Source of the DNA: Escherichia coli
GTDB taxonomy: Bacteria; Pseudomonadota; Gammaproteobacteria; Enterobacterales; Enterobacteriaceae
Direction: 5' to 3' (one strand)
DNA: 64,000 nucleotides
Assembly (NCBI RefSeq): GCF_016026235.1
Contig: NZ_CP065614.1
Part shown: piece by piece, positions 57,001-63,000 of the stretch
Layout: every line of letters starts with the position of its first letter
How positions within the stretch are numbered: position 1 is the first letter of the stretch
Made by a program: the position numbers

Positions 57001-60000
57001 TCACATGAAACGCCGGAAAGCAGTCTGAAACAGGAGGCAGGCAAGATGAACACGCTAATTAAGGTGTCTGCGGCCCCGCACCTCGGTAGCTGGCACACCA
57101 TCAACTGGAAGCGACAGTACCGAACGGTGAGACGGCTCCAGACGCGGATTGTGAAGGCAACACAGGAGAAGCAATGGCGTAGAGTCAAAGCTCTGCAACG
57201 TCTGCTGACCCGCTCGTTTGCAGCCAAAGCACTGGCTGTCAGACGGGTTACTGAGAACTCCGGGCGTAAAACCCCGGGAATCGACGGAAAAACTTGGAGC
57301 ACGCCGGCAGAGAAATGGAATGCTATCAACAACCTGAGGAGAAACGGCTATAAACCGAGTCCTCTGAAGCGAGTATATATTCCCAAATCCAATGGCAAAC
57401 TCCGCCCGCTGGGTATCCCCACGATGAAAGACAGAGCTATGCAAGCGCTCTACCTGCTCGCTCTGGAACCTGTCGCGGAAACGACTGCGGATCGTAACAG
57501 CTACGGCTTTCGTCCCCACAGAAGTTGTGCTGATGCAATCGAACAGGTTTTCAACAATCTGAACCGGAAAACATCGGCAACGTGGGTTCTGGAAGGGGAT
57601 ATTAAAGGGTGTTTCGACAATATCAGTCATAAATGGTTACTGGAGCATATCCCTATGGATAAACGGATCCTCCGTAGCTGGCTGAATGCCGGATTTATGG
57701 AAAAAGGAAGATTGTTCACTACTGACGCTGGTACACCTCAGGGTGCCCCCTGCTCACCAGTACTGGCAAATATGTGCCTGGACGGACTGGAAACAATTCT
57801 GACGAACCGTTTCGGGCGGAAAGGCACAGCCAAGGCCAGTAAATCCAAAGTGAACTATGTGCGTTACGCCGATGATTTCATTGTGACAGGAATTTCGCGA
57901 GAAATACTGGAAAGCGAAGTAAAACCGCTTATAACTGCATTCATGCAGGAAAGAGGGTTGCTCCTGTCAGAAGAAAAAACGACGGTTACTCACATAAATG
58001 ACGGCTTTGACTTTCTTGGACAAAATGTCAGGAAATACAAGGGGAAGTTACTTATAAAACCCTCTAAACATAACCTGAAAATGTTCCTTAATAAGATTAG
58101 AGCCACCATCGAAGGTAATAAAACTGCCAAAACAGACACACTGTTCAAACGGCTAAACCCTCTGATCAGAGGTTGGACCAACTACCACCAACATGTAGTG
58201 GCAGCCGAAACCTTCAGGTACGTCAACTTCCAACTCTGGAAAAAGATATGGCGATGGTGTCTCAGGAGACATCCTTCCAGAGGTAAACGATGGATACGCC
58301 GCAAATACTTCGACGAAAGCTGGAGGCTTCACTCGAAGGACGCCGACGGTCATCGTTGGGTACTGTATAAAGCATCGACAATACCTATACGACGCCACAT
58401 CAAAATAAAATCCGAAGCAAATCCATACGCCCCCGAGTGGGAGTCTTATTTTGAGAAAAGACAGGCATTGATATGGCTGAAATCTCAAAATGGCAGAAAC
58501 AGGATTGTAGCAATATGGAGAAAACAGGAAAAACGCTGCCCAATATGGGGACAATCGTTCAGCCAGGAAACGGGTTGGGATATCCATCACATTGTGCGAA
58601 AAACACAAGGGGGGAGCGACAATCTGGATAATCTAGTGATGCTGCATCCGAACTGCCACCGTCAACTCCACCACAGTAGTGAAACCGGCTCTCAGTATTG
58701 GGGGCTTATAAAGGCTTGAGCGGAGTGCGGGGAAACTCGCACGCTCCGTTCTTAGGGGGCGGCGGCGCAGCAATGTGCCGCTGCTACCCGACCCGCCAAG
58801 GCGGAGACAGCTTCGCTGGCTCCGTTCACGACAGCCAGCCCCGCCAGGGGGACGCCCGGGAAAGCCATAAACAGGAGAGGAGAGGAACGGAAAGAAGAAG
58901 AGGAAGAAGAACAATAACAGGCACGGTAACCACAGAAAAATAACATCAGAAAAAAATATTCCGGACACATCATAAACGGGAAGGGTAACGGGCGACGCGT
59001 CAGCGAGGCCCGCTTCCCTTCCGGCAGGCGTCAGCCTGCCAGGGGTTTTCGCGCGGGCTGACAGGCGGCCTCCACCGCCTGCCCTGTATCACCTGTGCCT
59101 GCTGCCCTGAAGGATGTAGTGACCACCGAGGAAAACCGCCTGCTGATTCGCCACAAAATCGCAGATTTCATCAACAATCTGCGCGGTGGTGAGCGGTTTC
59201 TGCCCCATTTCACGACGCCGCGCATTAATCACGGCCCTGTAATTACGCAGAATTTCGCGGGTTTCTGTGCTGATATTCATGACATGTGCTCCCCGTCCAG
59301 CGCCTGTAACACAACGTCCATTGCTTCGCGTTCCTCCCTGACGAATGCGTCACCGTCGCCCCCGTTCTCACTCCCGACGGCATACAGGCGCTTCATTTCA
59401 CTGCCTGCCAGCGCCATCACTTTTTCCAGCATCACCGCAGGGACTGTTACAAGACGGTTTACGCGCTTTTCCTCCATCAGTTCATTGACAATATCGGAAA
59501 CAACTCTGTCACATGCGCCATATACAAAAGCATCGTCCAGCCGCTGCATGACGGTTTCCAGCTCATCGTCTGTCAGACTCCAGTCCTGGGCTATGTGACG
59601 CACATCCCCACGGGTCAGCACCACGGCAAAAACAAATTCACTGTCCGGCACGTCTGTATCCAGTACATCGCGGATAATTTCTTTAACAGTACATGTTCTC
59701 GTCTCCTTTACAGGGGCGGCATTGCCGCCCCGTCCGTTAATCAGTCCAGTGCCGCGTAAATCGCGTTGCATTCAGGGTGAAATACGATGTGACGCCACAA
59801 CTGCGCATCGCGCATCCGGTAAAGCTGGGTCAGTCCTGCATCCCCGCTGTCGTGGTACAGCCACAACTGGCGGTTAATCACAAGAGAAGTCAGAATGATG
59901 CCTGCGGCATCAGCACTCACGGTACGGTCAAACCAGTTTGCACCGTTCACCATGTGGAAACGGTCGCCATCCGGCATCATGTAACCGCCACCGTCCGGCA

Positions 60001-63000
60001 GGCGGATGAAGTGCCAGAAGCCGCCTTCATATTCCGGCATCATTTTTTTCGCCAGCGCGTACACATACGCCTCGGCATACAGAAAATCGTTGCCAAACAG
60101 GTAAGGCAGAAAGGAGAGACGGTCGCACTCTTCAACATTCAGAGTGACAGGTTTCGCATATTGCATGATGTTTTCCTCCGTTGTTCACATATTCCGCGAC
60201 ACCGGGCGGTACCGTGCCTCCATAAAAGCCAGTTCAATTTGCCATCGCAGACGGTAACAATCAGCCACTTGCTCTGCTGAATATTCATCTTCCGATAATG
60301 ATGTTAGCAATAGCACATGGCCCGCTGCTTCCAGCGTTTCCGCCTGAACTACTCGTCCTTTTCGACGATTCTCGCTGAGCAGTCGGGTTTTACTGATTAA
60401 TGCTTTTTCGGGAGGAAGTGATACGGCAATGAGACGTGCAGGAAAGGGAGCTCCGGCTTTTTTATTACCTGAATTGCCTATCATTACAGTGGTTTCACCG
60501 TTCTTACCGCAATCCAGCCCGCGCAGAAAATCCATCATGTCAAAGCGCATTCCTTCTGCAGTTAACCAGCGCAATCCTCGCCAGTAAACCCGGACGATAT
60601 AATCAGCTTCTCCAAAAGCAAGTGAGCGGATACATTCGGGACGCGAACCGAATCCCCGGTCAGCAATTCGTATCTCGTCTGCCGTTTGCGCAAATCGATC
60701 CAGCCGTTCAGCGTCTCTGCTGTCGGTTAGCTCAAAATCAGTGAACTGACAGGTATGAGGATCATATCCCATATGTAGTCGCCATTCAGCGCTGCCGCCC
60801 CCGGGCGCGCTGATTGCTGTTCCATCGACAAGACGCAATCAAGGTGCGGCGGGAGTCGATGGCATGCGCGTAAGTGAACTGCCGGACTACCTGAGGCACC
60901 ACTGGCCAGAGCTGAAAGCGCAACTGCTGTCCGGCAGATACCGCCCATCCCCTGTGAGAAGAGTATCCATACTGAAGCCCGGCGGCGGCGAACGTCTGCT
61001 GGGCATCCAGATGGTGGTGGATCGCTTCATCCAGCAGGCTATGATGCAGGTATTGCAGGCACTGTGAGATAGCTCGTTCAGCGACAACAGCTACGGGTTC
61101 CGTCCCGGTCGTTCGGCCCACCAGGCAGTGATACAGGCCCAGGAATATATCGGGGCCGGGTATCACTGGGTGGTCGACCTCGATCTGGAGAAGTTCTTCG
61201 ACCGGATAAATCACGACGTGCTGATGAGCCGGATAGAGAAACGAGTATCGGATAAACGGGTGTTGTCACTTATCCGCAGGTTCCTGAATGCAGGGGTGAT
61301 GGACGCAGGTCTGGTAAGGCCGGTGACAGAAGGAACGCCGCAGGGCGGCGTGATCTCGCCCCTGCTCTCAAATCTGTTCCTGCACTATGCCTTTGATATG
61401 TGGATGCAACGTCAGTGTCCCGACGTTCCCTTCGAAAGGTACGCCGATGATGGTGTGCCACGAAGGCGCGCACCAGGGACGTGAGTCCCTGTGCAGCCAT
61501 GCTGCACAAGAGATGAGGGAAGGCCCCTCGGTGTCGGCGTGCAGGCGCAGGCACCAAACCACCCACTGCTGCTGCATTTAAGAGATGTGGTGGTGAGCGA
61601 GATGGGAAAAGGTCGGACGTGAGCCGATCAGGTATGGATCGAAGAGACGAACGAAAGTGAACCGCTGATGATGTGTCGAAAGCATATAGATGATGTCAAA
61701 ACCATGGTTATCCGGCTCCGGCGTTAACGTCACGGGAAGCAGTGCAGGCATATTTTTTCCGGAAGGCAGCAGGCCACCTTTCCGGTATTGATGGCGCCAG
61801 TTGAAGAGCAGGTTATCGTTGATTCCATTTTCACGGGCAATCTGCGCCACACAGGCTCCGGGCTGCAGTGACTGCTCCACTAAGGCGATTTTGAACTCAT
61901 AAGGGAAGTTGGGGCGCCGGGGACGCTTTTTTACCCCGGGGACTTCGGGCATAACGGTACTTTCAGTAAGTACGACAGGTACTGTGGAGGCACTCCCGTA
62001 AAGACGGGCGTCAAGTTCCCGCTCCGACATACCTGCGGGCAGAGGCCATGAAAGGCCAGCTTTGCGGAAGCGCACAAACATACTACAAACTGTTGATTTT
62101 GGTACGCCCAGGCGACGTCCGGCCACAACGAGGGGTAAATGTTCTTCAAAGTGAAGGCGTAAAGTGTGGATGGTGCAGAAGATGCCGATTTCCAGCCCCC
62201 GTTTTCGGGCTGCATACAGCAGATTCTCCACCGCCAGACGACACACGTCATTGCAGCCGTCAAGCTGCCGTGGTTCCGTGCCGTTCTAAATAGCTGCGCG
62301 GAATAGTAGATCCCTTTGAGGGAACTTAGCCCGGATTGTGCGATCTGATCAATCGCCAAATCAAAACAAATCACCAACCGGACTGAGCAATGCCGATCAT
62401 AGCACCAATTTCCCGTGACGAACGACGCCTGATGCAGAAAGCCATCCATAAAACACACGATAAAAATTATGCCCGCAGACTGACTGCCATGCTGATGCTG
62501 CACCGGGGCGACCGTGTCAGCGACGTTGCCAGAACGCTCTGCTGCGCCCGCTCCTCTGTTGGACGCTGGATTAACTGGTTCACGCAGTCGGGTGTTGAGG
62601 GACTGAAATCATTACCTGCCGGGCGTGCCCGTCGCTGGCCGTTTGAGCATATCTGCACACTGTTACGTGAGCTGGTAAAACATTCTCCCGGCGACTTTGG
62701 CTACCAGCGTTCACGCTGGAGTACAGAACTGCTGGCAATAAAAATCAATGAGATAACCGGTTGCCAGTTAAATGCCGGAACCGTTCGCCGCTGGTTGCCG
62801 TCTGCGAGGATTGTGTGGCGAAGGGCTGCGCCAACTCTGCGTATCCGTGACCCGCATAAAGATGAAAAGATGGCAGCAATCCATAAAGCACTGGACGAAT
62901 GCAGCGCAGAACATCAGGTCTTTTATGAAGATGAAGTGGATATCCATCTTCATCCCAAAATCGGTGCGGACTGGCAACTGCGCGGACAGCAAAAACGGGT

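Follow-up and report, generated by a model that had tools for sequence, protein, structure and literature searches.

KlcA and ArdB belong to a family of antirestriction proteins that inhibits type I restriction-modification in vivo indirectly and not as a DNA mimic (PMC2836571), and the effect of KlcA varies with expression level (PMC11602122). In F and in the IncI1 plasmid pESBL, the klcA operon was strongly induced in transconjugants, and rapid amplification of 5′ cDNA ends (5′RACE) placed its transcription start at a large hairpin on the 5′ side of klcA, termed a "class 2" single-stranded DNA (ssDNA) promoter (PMC12672017, published in 2025). The three-gene klcA module and its early expression are, then, already known. 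Here we describe a copy of this module at 59089-60166 of a 64,000-nt stretch of Escherichia coli DNA (contig NZ_CP065614.1, assembly GCF_016026235.1), referred to below as the window. With a probability of roughly 0.8, this is an eroded relic of the klcA operon that F-like plasmids conserve in their leading regions, and it carries two lesions, one upstream of klcA and one at the start of the second gene.

A first-pass annotation of the window had placed three same-strand genes here, with a KlcA-like gene as the last. ORF calling returned three same-strand open reading frames (ORFs) as proposed, all on the minus strand; on that strand klcA is the first gene, and the order of transcription is klcA (60166..59741), a DUF1380-like gene (59771..59277) and a 63-amino-acid (63-aa) ORF (59280..59089). 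The genes and the DNA immediately upstream comprise the following features:

59741..60166, minus strand: klcA-like antirestriction gene, 141 aa, first gene, intact (PF03230, 2kmg, 2wj9)
59277..59771, minus strand: "164-aa" ORF, consisting of the DUF1380-like body (from 59682 down) and a non-native 5′ extension (DNA alignment)
59089..59280, minus strand: 63-aa ORF, basic (isoelectric point [pI] 9.8), intact, start overlapping the upstream stop
60203..60230, minus strand: 28-nt remnant of the 3′ arm of a ~240-nt hairpin (putative class-2 ssDNA promoter), with the 5′ arm and the interior deleted
60223..60230, no strand: deletion junction with 8-bp microhomology, GGCTTTTA, joining klcA -64 to the interior of the insertion sequence (IS) IS421 (overlapping blastn segments)
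60231..60840, minus strand: remnant of a truncated IS421/IS4-family transposase gene, reading in the same direction as klcA and matching the interior of IS421 in the IncF relative L003 at 98.9% identity

By sequence, the 141-aa product is a member of the KlcA/ArdB antirestriction family with predicted activity, which agrees with the identity first given to it. It matched Pfam family PF03230 at 93.6 bits (cutoff 25, E = 8e-27, residues 45-141), the solved KlcA 2kmg of pBP136 at E = 1e-18 (residues 5-141, 70.8 bits), ArdB 2wj9 at E = 4e-7 (residues 11-141) and PHROG 10132, "anti-restriction protein," at E = 3.7e-19. A Shine-Dalgarno sequence (GGAGG) lies 7 nt before its ATG, and the identical protein was present on 136 contigs. 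The product resembles KlcA (IncP pBP136/RP4) and ArdB (R64 and a uropathogenic E. coli island) in its full-length alignment, its size and its plasmid-borne gene. It differs from IncP KlcA in coming from the F-like/IncF branch, with moderate similarity, and from intact KlcA/ArdB systems in that its native promoter is deleted. The three-gene module as a whole was found in at least 5,000 plasmid records, each with at least 80% query coverage (megablast), in which it is usually annotated as antirestriction protein, DUF1380 family protein and hypothetical protein.

The plasmid is F-like, of the enteroinvasive E. coli (EIEC)/Shigella pINV type; the best matches were E. coli CFSAN029787 pCFSAN029787_01 and Shigella boydii plasmids, and lpxM, virK and capU adjoin the region. 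Its transfer origin (oriT) was located by the following features:

53870-53884, plus strand: F-type oriT nic site, GGGGTGT/GGTGCTTT, exact match
53171..53554: traM, flanking nic on the side opposite to the klcA operon
53875..54477: SLT gene, flanking nic

We take the nic consensus to be that of the F TraI literature. Because nic lies on the plus strand at 53870-53884, the plus strand is the transferred strand (T-strand), and the leading region, the part that the recipient receives first, consists of coordinates above 53877. The klcA operon is thus inside the leading region, as had been claimed, 5.2-6.3 kb downstream of nic and with traM on the other side; the synteny of the tra genes, whose operon is on the minus strand, agrees. 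Given a nic site on the plus strand and an operon encoded on the minus strand, transcription of klcA and the genes after it uses the T-strand as template. The locus therefore shows the arrangement of a leading-region ssDNA-promoter operon, namely leading-region genes templated by the T-strand, and the same orientation was described for leading-region anti-defence genes by Samuel et al. (PMC11541004).

In the IncF relative (L003) and the S. boydii relative (L002), a hairpin with 32-nt arms that are 174 nt apart lies 5′ of klcA. Its arms in L003 (7246-7277/7452-7483) are 88% complementary, with the end of the proximal arm 37 nt from the start codon of klcA. Two diverged loci (L005 and L008) have a hairpin of the same architecture, but of another sequence, in front of klcA. 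Compensatory changes were found at 17 of the 50 predicted pairs in an alignment of four sequences representing approximately three independent lineages, a covariation that is supportive rather than conclusive. We infer that this hairpin is the published class-2 promoter.

The window lacks it. Native homology upstream of klcA ends 64 nt before the ATG, and ~680 bp that were present in all three fetched relatives are absent (blastn); the remnant ORF of IS421 (60185..60838) ends 19 nt before the klcA ATG. No inverted repeat comparable to the promoter hairpin was found in the window, and the DNA upstream of klcA in the window folded no better than its shuffles (z = -0.8). Thus, a long stem-loop 5′ of the first gene, which characterizes class-2 promoters, is missing from the window. 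A consensus scan of 58700-61300 returned no sigma-70-like promoter. The same interval contains one terminator-like site, located inside the 63-aa ORF, a number that does not exceed the chance expectation. Because the truncated IS421 frame runs in the direction of klcA, read-through is the only evident route of expression. The relatives of this locus are like the klcA operon of F and IncI1 pESBL in gene order, position, T-strand template and the long covarying hairpin; the window differs from F and pESBL in keeping 28 nt of one hairpin arm after the 680-bp deletion. Early expression in the recipient, also part of the first description, thus stands for the gene family in F and pESBL (PMC12672017) but is not supported for this copy, whose promoter hairpin is deleted.

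The second lesion was found by aligning the DNA of the middle gene in the window with that of a canonical IncF plasmid (CP015086), an EIEC plasmid and an S. boydii plasmid. The canonical middle gene encodes 140 aa (MYCTVKEII...), starts 46 nt after the klcA stop and has its own AAGGAG site; its start reads ...AAAGGAGACGAGAAC ATG TAC TGT ACT GTT AAA..., so that canonical plasmids have their start codon within two tandem copies of a pentanucleotide, A(TGTAC)(TGTAC)TGTT. In the window there is one TGTAC unit, and thus 5 bp fewer, versus two units in IncF and in S. boydii, its closest relative (99.1% identical). The following features surround the displaced start:

59683..59694, minus strand: displaced canonical start, ATG TAC TGT TAA (MYC-stop), holding the single TGTAC unit (59693-59689)
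59700..59709, minus strand: canonical Shine-Dalgarno region of the DUF1380-like gene, AAAGGAGACG, invariant in the alignment
59713..59731, minus strand: perfect GC hairpin between the klcA stop and the Shine-Dalgarno region of the DUF1380-like gene, GGGGCGGC-AAT-GCCGCCCC, with an 8-bp stem and a 3-nt loop

In the window, the canonical ATG (59694) encodes MYC and then a stop, and the body frame of the DUF1380-like gene is open upstream to an ATG at 59771, inside klcA, with an overlap of 31 nt. Loss of one TGTAC unit therefore accounts for both the 164-aa ORF and its seeming coupling to klcA. The 24 added N-terminal residues, MQRDLRGTGLINGRGGNAAPVKETRTC, are the translated 3′ end of klcA and the intergenic GC hairpin, which is read as ...GRGGNAAP... 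within the ORF and is unchanged in all four aligned plasmids. That hairpin has no T-run after it and would be atypical as a terminator; it might act in mRNA stabilization or translation attenuation.

The alternative that the 164-aa protein is genuine and translationally coupled to KlcA, in an operon that is intact and expressed early here, is very unlikely. In its favor, the reading frame stays open over 164 codons and extends into klcA, NCBI labels the ORF DUF1380 family protein, the exact 164-aa protein was present on 110 contigs, and its one-unit allele was found in 362 plasmids. Its N-terminal extension, however, is owed solely to the 5-bp deletion. No Shine-Dalgarno sequence was found before ATG 59771 or before any in-frame ATG, GTG or TTG of the first 50 codons, and the promoter hairpin is deleted in the window. 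In homologues at 34-62% identity on unrelated contigs, the start always lies 41-47 nt after the klcA stop, and the extension is absent from all diverged homologues. Since the overlap depends on the 5-bp deletion and homologues keep this spacer, the overlap and the coupling that it implies are not native. Translation of the 164-aa ORF is probably weak or absent. The earlier picture of a 164-aa acidic protein coupled on both sides is accordingly divided: the acidity holds (pI 4.5, net charge -13) but the length does not, the native protein being 140 aa, and the stop of the middle ORF and the start of the 63-aa ORF do share an ATGA (59280-59277), a native overlap, whereas the coupling of klcA to the 164-aa ORF results from the deletion.

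The middle gene is also damaged in a relative. The S. boydii copy (L002, NZ_CP026837) has the canonical start with two units, but its codon 97 has become a stop (GAA>TAA), and the gene has no coding sequence (CDS) annotation there. Given the frameshift in the window and the independent nonsense mutation in S. boydii, the DUF1380-like gene has been hit twice in the pINV lineage.

The one-unit allele was found in 362 plasmid records at 99% identity or more, approximately 7% of the best 5,000 records. The two-unit allele was the majority; three units were found in 3-4 records and four units in protein cluster P0011. Copy numbers other than two put the canonical ATG out of frame. The one-unit gene of pECOS88 is 91.9% identical to that of the window, compared with 99.1% for the two-unit S. 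boydii gene; because the one-unit state occurs on differing sequence backgrounds, it arose more than once or moved by recombination. Annotated starts of the DUF1380-like gene were ATT in one-unit plasmids (pECOS88 and pCS0010A; L014/L016) and CTG in a three-unit plasmid (L015), and a one-unit protein (P0065) begins with MNGR.... These RefSeq starts appear to have been placed by homology and not by a start signal, which hides the frameshift and further argues against a genuine 164-aa protein. The locus is thus an annotation trap: once a single 5-bp unit is lost, a 140-aa gene that has a ribosome-binding site of its own becomes a longer, seemingly coupled ORF, and public annotation propagates the extended ORF, for some alleles with ATT or CTG starts.

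It is highly doubtful that (TGTAC)n is a slipped-strand ON/OFF switch of the DUF1380-like gene, with the one-unit allele a reversible OFF state and not decay. Alleles of one, two, three and four units all exist, and the one-unit allele was seen on at least two sequence backgrounds, which favors a switch. A two-unit tract is, however, very short for appreciable slippage, and the alleles look fixed per lineage and not variable within a lineage. Recombination between alleles is indicated as well: pECOS88 shares an internal protein segment with the window gene, and the flanking parts differ.

Several points weigh against reading the window copy as an eroded relic. The identification of the upstream hairpin with the class-2 promoter rests on inference. 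None of the 72,556 plasmid records and none of the 5,426 complete genomes of E. coli searched contain the deletion junction, which is private to this source or, conceivably, an assembly error. Transcription of klcA could come from the IS421 remnant or from an unrecognized promoter. Some translation of the middle gene, whose ORF body is open, may occur from ATG 59771, from a non-canonical start or by re-initiation after the MYC-stop, and the one-unit allele is also carried by conjugative ColV-type plasmids such as pECOS88.

The eroded-relic reading is accompanied by losses elsewhere in the plasmid. Compared with its EIEC relative (L004), the window lacks the stretch 11354-14691, which includes traP, traK and traE; the break is at an ISEc60 junction (49876), and the spans compared were 49876-51191 of the window, with its ISEc60 copy, and 11354-14691 of L004, which annotates no CDS where traB would lie. 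The window retained oriT, traM, traJ, traY and traA. Because the traP-traE stretch of the transfer operon is missing, the plasmid is probably unable to transfer itself or to build its own mating pore. Most of the usual leading-region genes, among them those for DUF3560 and a methyltransferase as well as ssb and psiB, are absent between the DUF932 gene and the 63-aa ORF, and this gap is filled by a complete group II intron (~56430-58800, plus strand) with the following parts:

56493-56642: Rfam D1-D4 of the intron
57046..58719: 557-aa reverse transcriptase (RT)/maturase ORF
58716-58792: domain V/VI of the intron

A second, truncated intron with RT fragments lies at 60864-61633 (RF01999 at 61515-61633), upstream of the IS421 remnant.

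A near-perfect hairpin of ~270 nt is retained at 56046-56315, 2.2 kb from nic and upstream of small ORFs and the DUF932 gene. As ssDNA, 56010-56430 folded at -115 kcal/mol (z = -6.1). The hairpin is homologous to an element that occurs twice in the IncF relative L003 (1973-2423 and 5322-5757), and it looks like an Frpo/ssi-type ssDNA promoter.

The 63-aa ORF was found as a protein on at least 1000 contigs. Its homologues occupy the corresponding position in L005, L013 and L012, the last with a nonsense codon, and there is none in L008. Searches of Pfam, NCBIfam, PADLOC and PHROGs gave the 63-aa protein no family assignment. No relation was found to YubE, the small partner of a DUF1380 paralogue, and this candidate was rejected. 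It is extremely unlikely that the 63-aa protein, which is basic, and the acidic DUF1380-like protein are partners in a toxin-antitoxin-like pair or an obligate two-protein complex. The two genes overlap stop to start in the window, L003 and L005, and the proteins have opposite charges (pI 4.3 vs 9.8). They are lost independently, however: the 63-aa ORF is absent in L008 and carries the nonsense codon in L012, with the DUF1380-like gene intact in both, and the DUF1380-like gene is frameshifted in the window and carries its nonsense codon in S. boydii, with the 63-aa ORF intact in both. The toxin-antitoxin reading was rejected for this independent loss. No toxin-antitoxin family match was obtained in the Pfam, NCBIfam and PADLOC searches. 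When the two proteins were co-folded through a glycine-serine linker, the predicted TM-score (pTM) was 0.36 and the DUF1380 part was less confident, a weak negative since it rests on pTM and predicted local distance difference test (pLDDT) values; the 63-aa part was predicted as helix-helix-beta-hairpin. Neither the obligate co-occurrence nor the predicted complex expected of a toxin-antitoxin pair was thus found.

Restored to its native 140 aa, the middle protein has a pI of 4.3 and a net charge of -16. Strong negative charge is conserved in its family, as is typical of DNA mimics: 17 of the 19 full-length members have ~136-142 aa, a pI of 4.3-4.6 and a net charge of -10 to -17, even at 25-35% identity. 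The family is narrow (132 matches, many of them fragments, in a search of 1.84 billion cluster representatives). PF07128 was not matched by the window ORF or by the restored 140-aa form, and the IncF orthologue (L003) scored 23.7 bits, below the cutoff of 26. Phmmer reached full-length proteins at 29-39% identity that carry PF07128, and 16 of the 21 aligned relatives match it. The middle protein is therefore classed as a divergent member of DUF1380 by transitive similarity, and not in a known housekeeping family, the assignment that the first-pass annotation had named as contrary to its proposal.

In L003, a second conserved module (8975-11155) sits directly upstream of klcA and consists of an orphan N6/N4 DNA methylase, YubE (PF27407) and a strong DUF1380 paralogue, in that order; this module was also found in L005, L008, L012 and L013. 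The window has no such module, and IS debris, IS630 and lpxM/virK take its place. The paralogue is like the middle protein in length, acidity and leading-region location, and both match PHROG 9024, a family of unknown function. The klcA-linked subfamily differs from it in being divergent, in following klcA and not YubE and, in the window, in its displaced start. The methylase operon is the other newly recognized early-induced operon in F and pESBL (PMC12672017). Since the DUF1380-like gene follows klcA in every lineage examined and its paralogue is part of the early-induced methylase-YubE operon, a role in establishment or anti-defence is plausible.

The AlphaFold2 model of the restored 140-aa protein (pLDDT 82.6, pTM 0.59) has six helices and a long C-terminal helical hairpin. 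Foldseek found no significant neighbor of this model in the PDB (best E = 0.87), and BFVD gave nothing significant (best E = 0.016, an uncharacterized phage protein). Sequence matches to adenylate kinase in the PDB had only E > 0.1 and were judged to be chance, and that candidate was rejected. NCBIfam, PADLOC and PHROGs gave the protein no functional assignment.

The proposal that the native 140-aa protein is a DNA mimic, or another direct anti-defence factor that extends or complements KlcA antirestriction, is tentative and in our estimate unlikely; the DNA-mimic idea, based on charge alone, is rather improbable. The acidity is conserved across the family, the position beside klcA is kept at 34-62% identity, the T-strand is the template for the gene, and the paralogue occupies the neighboring orphan-methylase/YubE operon, which is also induced early in F and pESBL. 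Against the proposal, PADLOC gave no match and the sole PHROG match is to PHROG 9024; conservation is highest at an Arg, in a VTVPA motif and in Gly-rich loops, not in a charge array; start-displaced alleles are tolerated in 7% of plasmids; and no functional literature on DUF1380 was found. Searches on the F gene names yubI/J/K returned only unrelated papers, and klcA is unmentioned in some recent leading-region preprints. The protein shares with ArdA and Ocr its small size, its acidity and a gene that an incoming mobile element carries for early expression; it is unlike them in that no sequence or fold similarity was found, and its charge density is presumably below that of ArdA or Ocr. A fold like that of known mimics, which imitate the phosphates of B-DNA, was thus not found for the model. 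The earlier suggestion of a DNA-mimic candidate is neither refuted nor supported, as the acidity is conserved but the predicted fold matches no known mimic.

The gene identities, the synteny, both lesions and the hairpin with its covariation are observed, and they would be best explained as follows. In intact plasmids, the incoming T-strand would fold the ~240-nt hairpin just 5′ of klcA, and this hairpin would act as an ssDNA promoter, so that all three proteins would appear within minutes of entry, ahead of complementary-strand synthesis. KlcA would relieve type I restriction by its indirect, non-DNA-mimic route, and the two downstream proteins would be co-expressed early proteins, the acidic DUF1380-like protein most plausibly being an accessory establishment or anti-defence factor. 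In the relic, the 680-bp deletion, with one end inside the upstream IS421, would have taken out the promoter hairpin; the loss of a TGTAC unit would have shifted the DUF1380-like body away from the reading frame set by its own start and Shine-Dalgarno sequence, creating a spurious 164-aa ORF; and the traP-traE block and most other leading-region genes would also have been lost. Only klcA and the 63-aa ORF would remain intact, to be expressed by read-through from the IS remnant.

The products of DUF1380 genes are small, acidic across the family and predicted to be all-helical, and the genes are part of both early-induced operons, those of klcA and of the orphan methylase, which F-like as well as IncI plasmids carry upstream of Frpo2. 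A speculative and on balance doubtful extension is that DUF1380 proteins form an uncharacterized, zygotically expressed class of anti-defence or establishment factors, with the TGTAC tract as an ON/OFF polymorphism and the window as an OFF allele.

For the window itself the locus is of little importance: the module is annotated in enterobacterial plasmids by the thousand, and the copy here is nearly identical to those but partly broken. What interest remains lies with the DUF1380-like family and with the TGTAC tract that varies in copy number at its start codon. Conserved, acidic, located beside klcA and duplicated in the methylase operon, the family is a candidate for an establishment or anti-defence function. 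Both the hairpin and the DUF1380-like gene can be lost, the gene in two independent ways in the pINV lineage, and these losses are consistent with relaxed selection on establishment genes after a virulence plasmid stops self-transfer.

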